In this document: positions 15,946 to 48,407 of the stretch, piece after piece
How positions within the stretch are numbered: position 1 is the stretch's first letter
Layout of the letters: the number at the start of each line of letters is the position of its first letter
From: Patescibacteria group bacterium
GTDB taxonomy: Bacteria > Patescibacteriota > Minisyncoccia > Phycocordibacterales > UBA918
Reading direction: 5' to 3'
Length of the DNA: 64,000 bases
NCBI GenBank assembly: GCA_040386275.1
Contig: JAZKFU010000002.1
Span: forward strand, 16,858-80,857
Position numbers and translations under genes: made by a program
Notes under the pieces: model-generated
What the model was told of the DNA's origin: nothing
Database searches by the model: none
Seen by the model: the letters and a program-made list of their open reading frames with translations, nothing else

Positions 15946-16242
15946 CAAATACCAAAACCCAAACAAAGCCTAAGCTTTGTTTGGGTTTTGTTGTATTTGC
16001 GCGAGAAGAGAGGATTCGAAAAGGTTGCCAGCTATTTTGCAAAAATAGCGACTGTCAATTGAGCGAGCGTTATAAAAATTTATTTTTATAACCGAGTGAA
16101 AGCAGACAGAAAGCTCTGCTTACAACCTATACTGGTCTGTAAGCAGAGCTTTCTTTCACTGCATTCGCAACATAAATAAAAGTAAATTTTTTATTTAGTT
16201 ACTCATTTGTGAAAGTAACAACCGAATCCTCTCTTCTCCGCG
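15946..16242 (+). repeat. tRNA-3'-end composite repeat unit (subfamily 1) downstream of tRNA-Ser(GCU)
   Basis: T1 hairpin AAAACCCAAACAAAGC-CTAA-GCTTTGTTTGGGTTTT (15954-15989). Inverted tRNA 3' copy GCGCGAGAAGAGAGGATTCGAA (15999-16020). Core AAGGTTGCCAGCTATTTTGCAAAAATAGCGACTG plus long hairpin AGAAAGCTCTGCTTACA / TGTAAGCAGAGCTTTCT. Direct copy CCGAATCCTCTCTTCTCCGC (16222-16242). Confidence 0.6.
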
Positions 16243-18575: not shown

Positions 18576-18709
18576 TCTATACTGACGAGCGTCCAGGGAG
18601 GACTTGCCCAGTGGGTAAAACATGAACTGCTTCATGTTTTACCGCGTAGCGAGGCAGACACGAGGCCAATCTCTCTGCAGGGCGACAATTTGAACGAAGT
18701 GAATATACT

Positions 18710-18796
18710 GGAGGATTGGCCGAGTGGCTGAAGGCAGCGGTTTACTAAACCGCCAGAGGGTAAAACTTCTCGTGAGTTCGAATCTCACATCCTCCG
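18710..18796 (+). tRNA. Type-II tRNA, Ser-like, with anticodon loop TTACTAA (apparent anticodon ACU)
   Basis: Acceptor GGAGGAT/ATCCTCC, Ser-like D-arm GCCGAGTGGCTGAAGGC, anticodon stem GCGGT/ACCGC, 18-nt variable arm, T-arm GTGAG-TTCGAAT-CTCAC, discriminator G. Confidence 0.65.
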
Positions 18797-18957
18797 CACA
18801 TACCAAAACCCAAACAAAGCTTAGGCTTTGTTTGGGTTTTGTTGTATGCGCGCGAAGATGTGAGATTCGAAGCCCGATTGAGATATTTTGGAGCGTAGCG
18901 AACATAAATATCCAATTGGGGTACTGATCATGTAAGGTTCGAATCTCACATCCTCCG
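18797..18957 (+). repeat. tRNA-3'-end composite repeat unit SerL-1 (subfamily 2)
   Basis: T1 hairpin 18805-18840, nearly identical to the unit at 15954. Inverted copy GCGCGCGAAGATGTGAGATTCGAA (18848-18871). Core contains GGAGCGTAGCGAA. Direct copy GGTTCGAATCTCACATCCTCCG (18936-18957). Confidence 0.6.
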
Positions 18958-19158
18958 CCCGTATAAAATACCGCCTGTAAGGGCGGTTATTTTATTGGGC
19001 GGAGGATGAGCGAGTGACTAATGTCACTCGCGGTGAGATTCGAAAGACGGAAGCATGTCGCTCTGCGACAGCTGAGTCGGGGTCGAGAGTACTTACTAGA
19101 ATCAGAGCGTAGCGAATGATTATAGTTAGTAACTCGTGACCGAATCTCACATCCTCCG
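18958..19158 (+). repeat. tRNA-3'-end composite repeat unit SerL-2 (subfamily 2), in tandem
   Basis: Hairpin AAAATACCGCC-TGTAA-GGGCGGTTATTTT. Inverted copy GGGCGGAGGATG-[AGCGAGTGACTAATGTCACTCGC]-GGTGAGATTCGAA (18997-19044). Core AGACGGAAGCATGTCGCTCTGCGACAG...GTCGGGGTCGAGA plus GAGCGTAGCGAA. Direct copy CCGAATCTCACATCCTCCG (19140-19158). Confidence 0.6.
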
Positions 19159-19196
19159 CCCGCATAATCATCAATAAATTTGATATAATTAAAAAC

Positions 19197-19523
19197 ATGT
19201 CAATAGAAAAATTAAACCATAGCAGTCAAAATGAAAGTGACTTTGAGCAAAGAATGCAGGTTGAATACATCTCTCATATAATCGATAGTTTGATTAAAAT
19301 TGAAGTTTCAGTAACTGACCTCGAAGACAGGGATCATTTAAAAGATGTTCTGTCACAATCTCGATACGATTATGAGGAGATGCCTGAATCTCATATGGAT
19401 GAAAGTGAATTAGCGAAAGAAAAAGAGGCCTTACATGCGCTTGCTGAATTGGTGGGTAACCCTGAATTATCAAATGACCAAAGGGAAGAACTAATTAAGC
19501 AGAGACTTTCAAGCTGGTTCTAA
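19197..19523 (+). CDS. Hypothetical acidic protein, 108 aa, carried inside the tandem repeat array
   Basis: ORF flanked by direct copies of the tRNA 3' end. Acidic and helical, with no known motif. Confidence 0.45.
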   Translation: MSIEKLNHSSQNESDFEQRMQVEYISHIIDSLIKIEVSVTDLEDRDHLKDVLSQSRYDYEEMPESHMDESELAKEKEALHALAELVGNPELSNDQREELIKQRLSSWF

Positions 19524-19544
19524 CATCGTCCCATAACGCCCGCA

Positions 19545-19770
19545 AATACCAAAACCCAAACAAAGCCTAAGCTTTGTTTGGGTTTTGTTGTATGTGCGCG
19601 AGGATGTGAGATTCGAAAGGCACAGGCATGTTTTTACTCTTCCTAAAGTAAAAACAGCGGGAGAAACAGTGTCTAAACACTGTTTCTCGGGTAGCGAACA
19701 CTTAGTAGAATCTGCACGCAGTGCAAGATTATACTTAGTGATTCGTGAACGAATCTCACATCCGTGTACC
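19545..19770 (+). repeat. tRNA-3'-end composite repeat unit SerL-3 (subfamily 2)
   Basis: Remnant CGCCCGCAAATACC, then T1 hairpin 19551-19586 identical to 15954-15989. Inverted copy GTGCGCGAGGATGTGAGATTCGAA (19594-19617). Core has GGGTAGCGAACACTTAGTAGA...TTAGTGATTCGTGA. Degenerate direct copy ACGAATCTCACATCC (19749-19763). Confidence 0.55.
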
Positions 19771-19830
19771 TCTATGATGCTTATGTTTTATTGACTACAA
19801 TTTTACCAATTAAATACATATATTAAGGTA

Positions 19831-36462: not shown

Positions 36463-36473
36463 GAATTAAAACT

Positions 36474-36690
36474 GGGTTCCGGAATCGAGTCACGAATCAC
36501 TAAGTATATTATTTCGCTACGCTCATAATCTACTAAGTGTTCTTGACCACACCTCGCGGTTTTCTTTTCTGGTAAAAAGAAAACATCGCTGCGGTCGTTC
36601 GATTCCGCCGAAAGCAAAGCAGTTTGCTTTCTGAACTCCGCAACAAAAACGTAAAACCTCTGTCAATAAAGACAGAGGTTTTACGTAATG
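36474..36690 (-). repeat. tRNA-3'-end composite repeat unit (subfamily 2) downstream of initiator-like tRNA-Met, minus orientation
   Basis: In tRNA orientation: hairpin AAAACCTCTGTC-TTTATT-GACAGAGGTTTT; inverted copy TTGCGG-[AGTTCAGAAAGCAAACTGCTTTGCTTTC]-GGCGGAATCGAA; core with GAGCGTAGCGAA...TTAGTGATTCGTGA; direct copy CTCGATTCCGGAACCC (plus 36474-36489). Confidence 0.55.
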
Positions 36691-36761
36691 TTGCGGGTTC
36701 CGGAATCGAACCGGAGTCTGGAGGTTATGAGCCTCCCGAGGTACCTCTCCTCTAACCCGCT
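36691..36761 (-). tRNA. tRNA-Met (CAU), initiator-like
   Basis: Anticodon loop CTCATAA, A1:A72 mismatch, A11:U24 in the D-stem, T-arm TCCGG-TTCGATT-CCGGA, no CCA. Confidence 0.7.
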
Positions 36762-37542: not shown

Positions 37543-37694
37543 TTGATAGAGTGCTATATTAGTGGTATTCTGTTGCCACTTTTCTCTAGGTTAATGCTAG
37601 AGAAAATTGTATCCAGGGCGTATCGGTGTAAGCAAAGCTTTCACCGACTGCGTTCGAAGAAAATGTAAGCGAGCTTCCATTTTGCTTCTCACTT

Positions 37695-37768
37695 GTCGGT
37701 GTAGCTCAGCTGGTTAGAGCGTAGCACTCATAACGCTAAGGTCGGAGGTTCGAGCCCCCCCATCGACA
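37695..37768 (+). tRNA. tRNA-Met (CAU), elongator-like
   Basis: Acceptor GTCGGTG/CATCGAC (one GU), anticodon loop CTCATAA, T-loop TTCGAGC. Carries an A31-C39 mismatch and a T-stem mismatch, so it is somewhat degenerate. Confidence 0.6.
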
Positions 37769-37845
37769 CAACGCAGGATATTGCCCTTTTAATTAAAAGT
37801 GTATATACTCTTGCCACTAATACCCTCGGTATTTAGTAAGGAATT

Positions 37846-37919
37846 GCGGGCGTAGCTCAGCTGGTTAGAGCGCTTCCCTGTCACGGAAGAGGCCGTGGGT
37901 TCGAATCCCATCGCTCGCG
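37846..37919 (+). tRNA. tRNA-Asp, anticodon GUC
   Basis: Acceptor GCGGGCG/CGCTCGC, anticodon stem CTTCC/GGAAG, loop CTGTCAC, T-arm GTGGG-TTCGAAT-CCCAT, discriminator G. Confidence 0.8.
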
Positions 37920-38084
37920 CAAATGAAAGAGCCCTTCGGGGCTTTTTCGTTTACGCGAGCGAAAGAAAGCGCCTGCGCGCTTTCTGGTGGGATTCGAAAG
38001 CCGGAGTCATGTCGCCCTGCGACAGACGAGACGGGGTCGCGAAAATTTCTGAAAGAAATTATTTGTGACCGAATCCCATCGCTC
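37920..38084 (+). repeat. tRNA-3'-end composite repeat unit (subfamily 2) downstream of tRNA-Asp
   Basis: Hairpin AAAGAGCCC-TTCG-GGGCTTTTT. Inverted copy CGCGAGCG-[AAAGAAAGCGCCTGCGCGCTTTCTGGT]-GGGATTCGAA (37954-37998). Core AGCCGGAGTCATGTCGCCCTGCGACAGACGAGACGGGGTCGCGA. Direct copy CCGAATCCCATCGCTC (38069-38084). Confidence 0.6.
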
Positions 38085-38126
38085 CCACTCCTTCAAACAT
38101 CATCCCCCATCTGCTACACTACCCCC

Positions 38127-39647
38127 ATGCCCCCACTCACTATATACTGGTCACGTCGAGACTTCCGTCTGGCTGATAACCCGGCTCTGCTTGCTGCTTC
38201 CAGCTACGCAATTGCAAACAACACTTCTTTTCTCCCGCTCTTTATTGTTGAAGACTATATGACGGCAGGGAATCCGACATTTCAATTTGGCTACCCATCC
38301 CGTTGGTTTTTATCCCAGGCTCTGCCATCATTTGCGTCACACTTTGAAGAGTTTGCTATTGTGACAGGGAAAGGGGCACAGTATCTCATTGAACTTAGTA
38401 AAAAATTTAAGCTTACTGTTTTTGTAAATGATGATGTGTATGTAGATTTTTATAAACAAATTGCAAAACTAGAAAAAGCTGGAGTAGCAGTCACTGTCTG
38501 TGAGGACGCACTGTCTGTACCCAAAGAAACCAGATCAGGTGAGGGAAATTTATATAGTGTATTTACACCTTTTAAAAAAAATGTCTGGGCACGATTTATT
38601 GCTCATGCTCCGCACGCAACCTTTACCCAACCAAAAGCGCTTCAGTATCTCCCGACTAAAAACATTGAGGCACTCCCAAACTTGCTTACAAACACAACCG
38701 AAGCTATTTTTGCAGTCTTCAGTAAAAAACGTCTCCTTACCGTTGGAGGAATGACGCTTGATATAGGGGAACTAATTCCCGAGCAAAAAATTGAGGGTTG
38801 GTATACGACTGAAGACGAAGCCTTGCAACGTTTTTCGGATTACCTCACTTCTGGTGACTTAGATGCGTACAAGAAAAACCGAGACTCACTGGAACTTGAT
38901 GCTGCTAGCTTTGATGAGACCCGTACCGCCTATACGGGGAAGACTTCCAAAATGAGTCTCGCCCTGGCGTGGGGATTGGTATCGGCCCGAACGTTGATGC
39001 AGATGATGCAAAAGCACTTTGATGAAACCTTTGATAACCCCTTTTCTGCGCGGGTAAGTGAGGGAGCCTTAACGTATATTTCTGAACTAATCTGGCGGGA
39101 ATTCTACCGATACCAACTATTTCACCGTCCTGATTTAATGAACACAGAATTTCAAAAAAAATTCCAAGGCACCATTGCCTGGGTTGATACAAAAACAGCG
39201 CACGAACGATTTCTTGCCTGGATTAAAGGAGAGACGGGGTATCCGGTAGTTGATGCGGCGATGAGACAAGTAGCCGCAACTGGATGGATGCATAATCGTT
39301 CCCGCATGATTGTGGCGAGTATCTTAACCAAGAACTTTGGCGTTGATTGGCGGTGGGGTATGGAATATTTTCGAGCGGTGCTAATTGATTTAGACGAAGC
39401 GTCTAACTCAGGCGGGTGGCAGTGGGGAGCGTCAGTCGGGGCTGATCCTAAGCCGATACGAATTTTTAACGCTGAATTGCAAGCTAAAAATTATGATTCG
39501 TCCGGTGCCTATCAAAATCGTTGGCTTAACGATAATACAGTCTTTTCTCTAAAGGCCACGCGAGAGCCTATCATTGAACATAAGCAGGCGCGCGCCGAAG
39601 CCCTCACGCGCTATGGGTTAGGAGGGGAAGGAGCGCGGGATTATTAA
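38127..39647 (+). CDS. phr: Deoxyribodipyrimidine photolyase / cryptochrome family protein
   Basis: FAD-binding motifs 'WREFY', 'GWMHNRSRMIVASIL', 'DLDEASNSGGWQWGAS'. Start set at MPPLTIYWS; the 5' part of the long ORF overlaps tRNA-Asp and the repeat and is not coding. Confidence 0.85.
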   Translation: MPPLTIYWSRRDFRLADNPALLAASSYAIANNTSFLPLFIVEDYMTAGNPTFQFGYPSRWFLSQALPSFASHFEEFAIVTGKGAQYLIELSKKFKLTVFVNDDVYVDFYKQIAKLEKAGVAVTVCEDALSVPKETRSGEGNLYSVFTPFKKNVWARFIAHAPHATFTQPKALQYLPTKNIEALPNLLTNTTEAIFAVFSKKRLLTVGGMTLDIGELIPEQKIEGWYTTEDEALQRFSDYLTSGDLDAYKKNRDSLELDAASFDETRTAYTGKTSKMSLALAWGLVSARTLMQMMQKHFDETFDNPFSARVSEGALTYISELIWREFYRYQLFHRPDLMNTEFQKKFQGTIAWVDTKTAHERFLAWIKGETGYPVVDAAMRQVAATGWMHNRSRMIVASILTKNFGVDWRWGMEYFRAVLIDLDEASNSGGWQWGASVGADPKPIRIFNAELQAKNYDSSGAYQNRWLNDNTVFSLKATREPIIEHKQARAEALTRYGLGGEGARDY

Positions 39648-41234: not shown

Positions 41235-41307
41235 GCCATCATAGCTCAGTTGGTAGAGCATCGCCATGGTAAGGCGAAGGTCAACAGTTCGATTCTGTTT
41301 GATGGCT
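41235..41307 (+). tRNA. tRNA-Thr, anticodon GGU
   Basis: Acceptor GCCATCA/TGATGGC, anticodon stem TCGCC/GGCGA, loop ATGGTAA, T-arm AACAG-TTCGATT-CTGTT. Followed by terminator hairpin AAACCCCCGC-TTGG-CGGGGGTTT. Confidence 0.8.
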
Positions 41308-41342
41308 CAAAATGGAAACCCCCGCTTGGCGGGGGTTTGTGC

Positions 41343-46527: not shown

Positions 46528-46763
46528 CGAGTAGAAAAGACATCCCTCGGGATGTTTTTTCGTATCGCTGCCTGACAGGCGCAGCTTTCTGAAAGAAAGC
46601 GTCTGCGCGGACTCGAAAAGGTTGCCAGCTATTTTGAAAAAATAGCGACTGATAATTGAATGAGTGAAATGAAAATTTATTTTCATTTCCGAGTGAATGC
46701 AATCAGGAAGCTTTGCTTACAACCTGTACTGAAGCTGTAAGCTTCGAGTCCCTGTCAGGCAGC
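46528..46763 (+). repeat. tRNA-3'-end composite repeat unit (subfamily 1) downstream of tRNA-Gln
   Basis: Hairpin AAAAGACATCCC-TCGG-GATGTTTTTT. Inverted copy CGCTGCCTGACAGG-[CGCAGCTTTCTGAAAGAAAGCGTCTGCGC]-GGACTCGAA (46566-46617). Core AAGGTTGCCAGCTATTTTGAAAAAATAGCGACTG...GAGTGAA...GCTTACAACCTGTACTGAAGCTGTAAGC shares about 85% with the unit at 16021-16160. Direct copy TTCGAGTCCCTGTCAGGCAGC (46743-46763). Confidence 0.6.
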
Positions 46764-47606: not shown

Positions 47607-48407
47607 ATGGTACCATCAGTTCACATGAATTCCTCAAGTATAACCTTACCTACTACCATTGATGAAGTGATTGCGCATTTAGATGCTATCGTATTAACGT
47701 GTGAAGCTACGGGTTGTCGGATGGGTTATTTCCCCGCAATGTACAATCGGGTCACGAGACAAGTTAAGCAGCGCATCCTCGAAGGGTCTTTTGAAGATAA
47801 CGAACGCATGGAGCGGTTTGATGTTATTTTTGCTAACCGGTACTTAGTCGCGTACTATGCGTACGCCCAAAATAAGCCGTGTTCTGAATCGTGGAAAATA
47901 ACGTTTGAGGCGTCTAAAAAATGGAGCCCAATGGTGATTCAGCATTTGATTGCCAGTATGAATGCACACATTTGTTTAGATCTGGGTATATCAGCGGCAG
48001 AAACCGAAACACACAATTTACTGTCACTAAAAAATGACTTTGATCAGGTTAATGACATATTAGATTCACTGATTGAAGAAGTTGAAGCAGAACTTCGAGA
48101 AATATTTCATCCACTGACAACCTTTGATAAAATAACGGGAAACTCATATTGGCCCATTGCTCATCTGGGCATTATCAAATCTCGTACTGATGCTTGGCAT
48201 GTAGCTGAAGCATACGCCCAACTACAAACAGATAAAGAACGACAAATATTCATTCAGTTGCGTGATCATCACGTGGCGGTGATTGGAAAGAGGATTCTGC
48301 AACCGCCTAAACTGGTACGACTGCTGGTCGGAAAGGTGCGTGATTTTGAGAAAGGTACGGTTGCGGATAAAGTACACATTATGAATCGGAAAATTGTTCG
48401 CAACTAA
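47607..48407 (+). CDS. Hypothetical protein, 266 aa
   Basis: ORF only. Predicted helical with no recognised motif. Confidence 0.5.
   Translation: MVPSVHMNSSSITLPTTIDEVIAHLDAIVLTCEATGCRMGYFPAMYNRVTRQVKQRILEGSFEDNERMERFDVIFANRYLVAYYAYAQNKPCSESWKITFEASKKWSPMVIQHLIASMNAHICLDLGISAAETETHNLLSLKNDFDQVNDILDSLIEEVEAELREIFHPLTTFDKITGNSYWPIAHLGIIKSRTDAWHVAEAYAQLQTDKERQIFIQLRDHHVAVIGKRILQPPKLVRLLVGKVRDFEKGTVADKVHIMNRKIVRN

Follow-up and report, generated by a model that had tools for sequence, protein, structure and literature searches.

The 64,000-nucleotide (nt) stretch of a Patescibacteria group bacterium analyzed here (contig JAZKFU010000002.1, positions 16,858 to 80,857; hereafter the window) carries a short repeat unit at positions 37920-38084, between a tRNA-Asp gene and a gene for deoxyribodipyrimidine photolyase. 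We find that it is an RtT-like structured element, diverged and linked to its tRNA, and that the family to which it belongs is very widespread. RtT, the Escherichia coli repeat with which we compare it, was reportedly first described decades ago. The unit consists of a terminator hairpin, an inverted copy of the 3' half of the tRNA (X'), a structured core and a direct copy of the same tRNA end (X_down, or X).

Anatomy of the tRNA-Asp unit

The tRNA-Asp (GTC) gene occupies positions 37846-37920 of the plus strand (ARAGORN, with its end at 37919 or 37920; Rfam tRNA, 71.1 bits), and its 3' half, TTCGAATCCCATCGCTCGCG at 37900-37919 (X_up), is the source of the copies in the unit, which begins 1 nt after the gene on the same strand. 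Positions 37920-37953 form an intrinsic-terminator-type hairpin, GAGCCC-TTCG-GGGCTT followed by a T-run, whose stem is continuous with the palindrome made by X_up and X'; the terminator/promoter scan flagged this hairpin on the minus strand. X' is split by an inserted 9-bp hairpin (37962-37985) into an acceptor part, CGCGAGCG at 37954-37961, and a T-stem/T-loop part, GGTGGGATTCGAA at 37986-37998, which together are the reverse complement of TTCGAATCCCATCGCTCGCG with one G.T. The two-hairpin core (37999-38069) comprises a left hairpin at 37999-38034, with helices P1 (CCG/CGG), P2 (GTC/GAC) and P3 (TGTCGC/GCGACA), and a right hairpin at 38035-38070, GGTCGCGA...TTGTGACC, with a conserved G.U pair. 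The unit ends in X_down, a 15-nt direct copy (CGAATCCCATCGCTC, 38070-38084) that is identical to tRNA-Asp positions 37902-37916 and lies within the direct-copy stretch CCGAATCCCATCGCTC at 38069-38084. X_down lacks CCA because CCA is not encoded in the tRNA gene, and indeed it is encoded in none of the tRNA genes or direct copies of the window.

The hairpin, inverted copy, core and direct copy that an earlier note on this DNA had read at 37920-38084 are therefore all in place. The kinship that it had seen between the core and positions 19045-19110 is likewise borne out, since 38 of 46 positions (83%) are shared with 19043-19088 and the differences include compensatory ones (GTC/GAC vs AGC/GCT). 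Two core motifs are restricted in the window to these two places, for chance expectations of 0.01 and 0.15. The fold of the unit reaches -64 kcal/mol (z = -6.6 compared to shuffles) and is a three-way junction closed by X' and X_down; in both the minimum free energy and the consensus structures, it is the inverted T-stem copy and the direct 3'-end copy that form the closing helix.

Sister units in the window

We searched the window for copies of the 3' end of each tRNA. Units lie behind five of its eight Rfam-confirmed tRNAs, namely Ser(GCT), Ser(ACT), Met, Asp and Gln, and in every one of them X' and X_down match the unit's own adjacent tRNA. The unit behind tRNA-Ser(GCT) (15947-16241, plus strand) is composed of a terminator, X' (16000-16021), a type-B core and X_down (16222-16241). 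Behind tRNA-Ser(ACT) stand two units in tandem (18798-19160, plus strand): S1, with X' at 18850-18872 and X at 18936-18958, and S2, with X' at 19000-19045, a core matching that of the tRNA-Asp unit and X at 19140-19160. A third unit of the same tRNA, S3 (19540-19763, plus strand), has a perfect X' and a shortened X_down. The minus-strand tRNA-Met gene (36690-36761) is followed by a unit at 36473-36689 on that strand, and tRNA-Gln by a plus-strand unit at 46529-46763 with a hairpin-split X', a type-B core and a full X_down. The split design of X' thus recurs in sister units.

The cores of these units combine only a few kinds of hairpin module. Core A is common to the tRNA-Asp unit and S2, and core B (AAGGTTGCCAGCTATTTTG...AAAATAGCGACTG...CCGAGTGAA) to the tRNA-Ser(GCT) and tRNA-Gln units. 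The third, a 3' module, has the loop GAGCGTAGCGAA and finishes in GTGAC immediately ahead of X_down; the right hairpin of the tRNA-Asp unit is a short version of it, sister units bearing the loop GAGCGTAGCGAA at that place. One type-B module has apparently been inserted in the tRNA-Met unit of a relative (L003, 2199-2418, minus strand; such handles denote loci from other genomes).

In units of tRNA-Ser the acceptor part of X' reads GCG-C-GAG and not GCGGAG (16000-16006, 18851-18857 and 19598-19604, as well as in L025), leaving a conserved single bulged C in the X' helix, which S2 does not have. S2 and S3 are separated by an acidic 108-aa open reading frame (ORF) at 19197-19523, for which no Pfam hit was obtained above the cut-off. 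It is the only coding cargo among the units in about 190 loci. Outside any unit, the region upstream of tRNA-Ser(ACT) (18600-18700) holds the hairpin GTAAAACATGAACTGCTTCATGTTTTAC followed by CGCGTAGCGAGG, the latter of which resembles the unit loop motif GCGNAGCG.

Consensus structure and strand bias

Ten units from Patescibacteria loci were aligned, and a covariance model, R1, was built from them. It replaced a strict regular expression for the core, which was too narrow (3 hits). The ten-unit consensus consists of a closing stem, a left hairpin and a right hairpin (GGTCG...YGTGACC) that together make a three-way junction. Paired cells amount to 89.5%, compared to 74% in shuffles and 29-44% in slid controls; both sides have changed in 18 of the 26 consensus pairs, and one G.U pair is retained in 8 of the 10 sequences. 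The three-way-junction fold is thus supported by covariation.

In the window, R1 recovers its three training units. The match at the tRNA-Asp unit (37983-38083) scores 98.7 bits, this unit being itself one of the ten training sequences, and that at the tRNA-Met unit 79.7 bits; the tandem tRNA-Ser(ACT) units score 99.8 and 14.6 bits, the match to S1 being weak. S3, which was not in the training set, is detected with 34.6 bits (E = 5.5e-8). Apart from S1, weak hits in the window (E from 0.24 up) do not lie behind tRNAs and were treated as noise. R1 misses both type-B units, indicating that the family is broader than one model. In 127 further loci its hits are confined to Patescibacteria (including Saccharibacteria) and always lie directly behind a tRNA; they include untrained units in L010, L082, L130 and others.

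We compared the two strands in 93 distinct units drawn from a wide range of taxa. In 80 of these, the tRNA-sense strand of the core gives the more stable fold (mean 5.6 kcal/mol, p = 1e-14). The sense strand is purine-rich, and G.U pairs number 176 on it vs 90 on the antisense strand. The motif GAGCGNAGCGA is found on the sense strand of 20 cores and on the antisense strand of none (expected, 0.16), and GCGNAGC occurs 102 times in sense vs 3 times in antisense. These biases in fold and motif indicate that a single-stranded form of the sense strand is under selection, for which RNA is the simplest reading.

Relation to E. coli RtT

RtT RNA has been detected in E. coli and Actinobacillus (PMC4986893), and is reported to be released from transcripts of tyrT and other tRNA operons, with its function unknown (PMC4986893, PMC7542023). 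The literature that we found reports RtT in a few other Gammaproteobacteria; by the Rfam model, the present analysis met it in E. coli only, where genomes hold 0-14 copies (median 3). The 178-bp repeats of E. coli tyrT/tyrV (rttR/tpr; Rfam RtT, RF00391) present their parts in the same order as the window units: tRNA-Tyr, a spacer, GGGGAAGGAT..TTCGA, a core with GAGCGCCAGCGAGA and GGCGAAGCGCGCAGCG, and then AATCCTTCCCCCACCACCA. The Rfam RtT consensus likewise closes with an X'/X stem and holds a motif near-identical to GAGCGNAGCGA.

The two groups share a position directly behind tRNA genes in tRNA operons, the sense orientation, a short inverted T-stem/T-loop copy, a structured core that is GC-rich and bears a GAGCGNAGCGA-like motif, a direct copy of the 3' end of the tRNA, an X'/X closing stem, tandem arrays, and a copy number that varies between strains. 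They differ in several respects. X' of the window units covers the whole 3' half (~20 nt vs 10 nt in E. coli), with an extra hairpin dividing it; as a rule a terminator stands between the tRNA and the window unit, where E. coli has no hairpin; CCA is not encoded in the window; and unit type changes from one window unit to its neighbor, unlike in the near-identical repeats of E. coli. The tRNA-Asp unit, moreover, is without the GAGCGNAGCGA loop. The RtT core motif gAGCGaAGcgAGA, which is likewise absent from it, appears as GAGCGTAGCGAA in S1, S2 and the tRNA-Met unit, and in 20 of the 93 units across phyla.

The E. coli repeats score 133-138 bits with the Rfam RtT model, the gathering threshold of which is 45 bits, while that model gives no hit in the window at the threshold and none at E<=10 in 37600-38300 or 18700-19800. 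Since the models do not cross-score, we call the unit an RtT-like variant and not a member of RF00391. A study of the E. coli mobilome found raised coverage of the tyrT/rttR region, and ascribed the raised coverage of RNA genes to RNA/DNA heteroduplexes and not to circular DNA.

Small RNAs of E. coli rRNA operons invite a similar comparison. The RNAs rrA, rrB and rrF reportedly lie between dual terminators (PMC8144298) and are structured RNAs that follow the first terminator of a stable-RNA operon and are made by read-through, as the unit RNA would be; they differ in having no copies of the upstream RNA's 3' end.

Distribution across prokaryotes

A scan of one genome per species for GGTTCGAATCC-N55-85-GGATTCGAA returned at least 120 loci. 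Taking the loci listed by that scan together with the window and three relatives, at least 136 inverted T-loop copies lie downstream of tRNAs without overlapping a convergent tRNA, 2 others overlapping one, and for at least 106 of these 136 a direct copy of the 3' end of the tRNA comes within the next 260 nt. Hosts among the matches listed include Collinsella and other Coriobacteriia, several Firmicutes families, Holophagaceae, Verrucomicrobiota, many Patescibacteria classes and haloarchaea, so that the architecture is also seen in Actinomycetota, Firmicutes and Acidobacteriota; one Leptospira locus, judged by eye, may be a transfer-messenger RNA gene. X' always ends at TTCGAA, and X_down begins within the T-loop. 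In the tRNA-Gln unit, X' is the Watson-Crick complement of the 3' strand and not a copy of the wobble-containing 5' strand.

Some lineages show features of their own. In Coriobacteriia (Collinsella, e.g. L006 6440-6475, L053 and L084) a conserved TGGGCCCA palindrome precedes the inverted T-arm copy, and this copy folds into a full T-arm-like hairpin, GGGATTCGAACCC. In the cores of many Firmicutes units there is a hairpin with loop CCNGTGG between A- and T-runs, resembling a terminator.

No Rfam family other than tRNA matched the units, either in the whole window at the gathering threshold or in permissive searches of two unit regions, and none covered those of 18 loci in other phyla. When the literature was searched for tRNA-linked elements of this general kind, nothing beyond RtT emerged. 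In viral contigs the core-A motif gave two chance hits only, inside phage genes, and in a plasmid collection the tRNA part alone matched. The general tRNA/inverted-T-loop pattern led to three tRNA-Tyr units in viral contigs (L140, L143 and L183), which we take for host flanks of prophage contigs; most other hits there were only 9-10-nt inverted matches, and no phage-borne autonomous version was found.

Several other kinds of element were considered and set aside. A miniature inverted-repeat transposable element (MITE) is rejected because the inverted parts are not constant in the family but differ between copies and equal the adjacent tRNA. The units do resemble REP/BIME, ERIC and Correia-type MITEs in being short, hairpin-rich, modular, dispersed, often near terminators and subject to motif shuffling; they differ in that their terminal inverted parts are copied from the adjacent tRNA and that they are confined to tRNA 3' flanks, with no hits above noise elsewhere in the 64 kb. 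A hammerhead or hepatitis delta virus (HDV)-like ribozyme, a T-box, a retron, an IS200/IS605 or TnpB guide RNA, an IS110 bridge RNA, a CRISPR-transposon homing spacer and a degenerate tRNA pseudogene were also rejected: inspection by eye showed no ribozyme core, there was neither an Rfam hit nor an associated protein, and the copies are of unsuitable length or orientation.

Turnover of units in relatives

The tRNA-Asp locus differs between relatives of graded distance (photolyase identity in brackets). L128 (99%) has an identical unit, while L003 (95%) has a different element of other modules, without T-arm copies. L005 (83%) carries two units and an old remnant, the second unit matching that of the window but with a different left hairpin. 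L129 (82%) retains only a decayed direct copy, on a contig that ends 121 nt upstream of the ATG, and in L004 (85%) the photolyase gene has no adjacent tRNA. Behind tRNA-Thr there is no unit in the window or L003 and there are one or two in L005 and L004. Behind tRNA-Ser(ACT), L130 has an S2-type unit only and L131 an S1-type unit only, compared to the S1, S2, ORF and S3 of the window. The sequence that follows the direct copy of window S1, GCCCGTATAAAATACCGCC, equals the tRNA flank of L130, which indicates that a segment comprising the tRNA 3' part, terminator, X' and core was inserted within the 3' region of the tRNA, pushing out its former end. X' and X_down track the tRNA of each genome (ATCCTCC in the window vs ATCTTCC in L130 and L131), and decayed, older remnants sit furthest from the tRNA. 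All of this turnover can come from homologous recombination between the tRNA gene, the X repeats and the shared T-loop.

The same pattern of gain would also be expected of a mobile single-stranded-DNA hairpin cassette comparable to integron attC sites or to CTX-phage integration, a reading that we regard as unlikely although it is the main rival of the RNA module favored below. A small circle would fold so that its X/X' duplex copies the tRNA 3' end, a recombinase would exchange one strand in or near the T-loop, and replication would then leave the tRNA followed by cargo (a terminator or an ORF), X', the core and the displaced old 3' end. Such a cassette predicts the order X_up, terminator, X', core and X_down as well as the tandem arrays. 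The entry of S1 inside the tRNA 3' region, with the old end and terminator pushed downstream, agrees with it, as do the position of the decayed remnants and the 108-aa ORF in the place of cargo at S3. The extra hairpin and bulged C are on the X' side only, like the extrahelical bases of attC, and the strand bias fits a recombinogenic strand. Both kinds of site also share an imperfect hairpin with side-specific extra-helical elements, an inverted copy ~100 nt before the junction copy, strand-specific folding and arrays that grow at one fixed site.

However, no recombinase gene lies near any unit, the neighbors being housekeeping genes, and there is no IntI or dedicated Xer nearby. The attachment site would be the tRNA 3' half and not attI or dif, and neither R/L boxes, an integron R-box (GTTRRRY) nor a dif-like site is present; when examined for attC features, the junction reads TTCGAA/CGAAT with no R''/R' sites (RYYYAAC/GTTRRRY), and no integrase domains occur in the neighboring genes. 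Cargo is usually only a terminator, with coding cargo confined to S3, and the distant direct copies in L069 and L183 proved to be chance matches inside genes, so that larger cargo-bearing elements were rejected. Gain and loss follow just as well from ordinary homologous recombination of the X repeats with a donor, RtT is a known RNA product, and a cassette has no need of a three-way core whose fold and purine-rich loop motifs are conserved across phyla.

Direct repeats of tRNA 3' ends are also the hallmark of integrases that insert at T-loop and 3'-end sublocations, and the units could be scars (attL/attR) of phages or islands from which most of the element has been deleted. In keeping with this, the new 3' end arrived with the inserted segment, as incoming DNA of tRNA-targeting integrative elements restores the tRNA and displaces the old end, and units stand on the host flanks of prophage contigs. 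We nevertheless judge this origin distinctly improbable. The units measure 100-300 bp and have a conserved, covarying, strand-biased and RNA-like fold that random remnants would not have; attP arms do not characteristically hold inverted copies of their target; and the same core types occur at different tRNAs with matched X' and X. There are no integrase genes or remnants, and the 149 bp between the direct repeats at tRNA-Asp contain no ORF.

A functionless by-product of replication error, in which fold-back priming at the terminator palindrome yields the inverted copy of the tRNA 3' end and a template switch at the palindromic TTCGAA then restarts the direct copy, seems to us improbable. It would account for the continuous, near-perfect palindrome of X_up, terminator and X', for the fixed boundaries of X' at TTCGAA and of X_down within the T-loop, and for the inclusion of the terminator in a duplicated piece in Faecalibacterium. 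It leaves unexplained the ~70-200-nt core, its covariation, the strand-specific motif that crosses phyla and the reuse of modules, and units without a terminator palindrome are seen in L082 (tRNA-Cys) and in E. coli.

The photolyase gene and its start

The photolyase gene encodes 506 aa and lies at 38127-39647 on the plus strand, as judged from homologues and Pfam; an exact-protein look-up of its product returned no record. The earlier note had held that a 574-aa ORF call over-extends this gene through tRNA-Asp and the unit, and that the real start is most likely at 38127. Among the 120 best homologues (56-99% identity), nearly all are 492-510 aa long, cover the 506-aa form in full and align from its residue 1, with no conserved extension that matches the translation of 37923-38126. 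In the long ORF the Pfam DNA_photolyase domain starts at residue 73, equivalent to residue 5 of the short form. Both the lengths and the domain position agree with the proposed start, and on these comparisons the real start is 38127, with the unit outside the coding sequence. The long ORF does run through the unit; since it begins at 37923 and the tRNA spans 37846-37920, it does not include the tRNA. The unit does end upstream of the ATG at 38127, as the note had it, at a distance of 42 nt and not 43.

This interval (38085-38126, plus strand) is a conserved photolyase-proximal segment outside the unit, as aligned with L003, L005 and L129. Read from the sequence, it contains TTCAAA (38092-38097), a 17-nt spacer and TACACT (38115-38120), which ends 6 nt before the ATG; this suggests a leaderless or near-leaderless start behind a putative promoter, although the scan tool made no promoter call at this TTCAAA-N17-TACACT (38092-38120). 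The 42 bp are kept in L005, in L129 and in L003, the last of which has the different element and is without this direct copy. Because they are conserved whatever unit lies upstream, the unit is neither coding sequence nor, on this reading, the proximal promoter.

We therefore give very little credence to the unit as a regulatory leader of the photolyase gene, the promoter or 5' untranslated region that had been proposed. Its end 42 nt before the ATG and its orientation, the same as that of the gene, would suit such a role. In contrast, the proximal segment has its own -35/-10-like boxes by the ATG and is conserved where the unit has been replaced (L003), sister units precede unrelated genes or face convergent ones, and the family tracks tRNAs and not photolyases, the L004 photolyase having neither tRNA nor unit upstream. 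The alternative that the photolyase is cargo or neighbor of an insertion holds for the neighbor and not for the cargo: the order tRNA-Asp, unit, photolyase is found in relatives at 82-99% identity (with a different element in L003) and not in L004. The photolyase gene is a mere neighbor of the unit with its own start and its own promoter-like segment.

Other features of the tRNA loci

The unusual anticodon ACT of tRNA-Ser is conserved in this Patescibacteria clade alongside the normal tRNA-Ser(GCT): the gene is at 18710-18797 in the window, 3848-3938 in L130 and 4087-4174 in L131, and is one of two tRNA-Ser genes in L025. The tRNA-Met gene of L005 (2298-2517, minus strand) has its anticodon loop interrupted by a group I intron (Rfam RF00028, 67.8 bits), whereas that of the window (36690-36761) and that of L003 are intron-less. 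Similarly, tRNA-Thr carries a ~205-nt anticodon-loop insertion, below the Rfam group I threshold, in L005 (6588-6795) and L003 (7147-7352), and is uninterrupted in the window (41235-41308). In L004, an ORF at 195-803, for which a faint LAGLIDADG hit was obtained, terminates just past the start of tRNA-Asp (794-869). The tRNA-His(ATG) that ARAGORN places at 47823-47903, within a DUF5995 ORF (47607-48407), was unconfirmed by Rfam and is probably spurious.

A proposed RNA module with recombining ends

On balance, we lean toward the view that the unit is an RNA module that is processed like a tRNA, and that recombination at the repeats of the tRNA end drives the turnover of its DNA. The unit RNA would be made by read-through or by co-transcription with the tRNA, and X' would pair with X_down to close the three-way junction. 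Since this closing helix copies the acceptor/T-arm stack and ends like a tRNA, the enzymes of tRNA maturation could plausibly excise the unit, as is reported to happen to RtT RNA in E. coli. At the level of DNA, the X repeats and the near-universal T-loop TTCGAA would provide short homologies through which whole units could be added next to a tRNA or deleted, and modules swapped between tRNA loci. In L082 a unit lies directly after tRNA-Cys with no terminator, inside a Cys-Leu-Lys tRNA cluster, and its direct copy includes the encoded CCA. As to cellular roles, the module may be a decoy, a processing signal or a selfish passenger.

Several observations weigh against this view. A good terminator stands between tRNA-Asp and X', and the promoter scan calls no promoter-like site for the tRNA-Asp unit, so that the unit RNA may be scarce and its expression at this locus would need read-through. 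X' can pair just as readily with the 3' half of the tRNA itself, on the far side of the terminator (37895-37998, -67.9 kcal/mol, z = -8.6). The last X_down is shortened in 3 of the 5 arrays in the window, which would be odd if the X'/X_down helix were essential. Strand bias and covariation would be expected for a functional single-stranded DNA form too. At positions where the direct copies disagree, X' mostly matches the one in the tRNA, but this count is dominated by the T-loop boundary and is weakly informative. Lastly, Rfam RtT misses the window and R1 misses E. coli, so that common descent with RtT is unsupported by the models.

A broader proposal, which we advance tentatively and consider doubtful, is that tRNA-attached structured elements make up a pan-prokaryotic superfamily that includes the unit and in which RtT would form one narrow branch. 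Its members would share the strand-specific GAGCGNAGCGA minihairpin, use the T-loop/3' half as a programmable attachment site, and behave as mobile, cassette-like modules, each rewriting its inverted and direct guide copies to suit the tRNA at hand. If true, this would amount to a mobile or RNA system with no described enzyme.

The units are a recurrent source of ORF over-calls and of mis-annotated intergenic regions beside tRNAs, and they mark tRNA 3' flanks as fast-evolving recombination sites even without integrases. Taken together, a plan shared from Patescibacteria to haloarchaea and a strand-specific motif make RtT a general comparative problem and not an E. coli curiosity, for which many independent sequences are now usable in the prediction of structure and partners.

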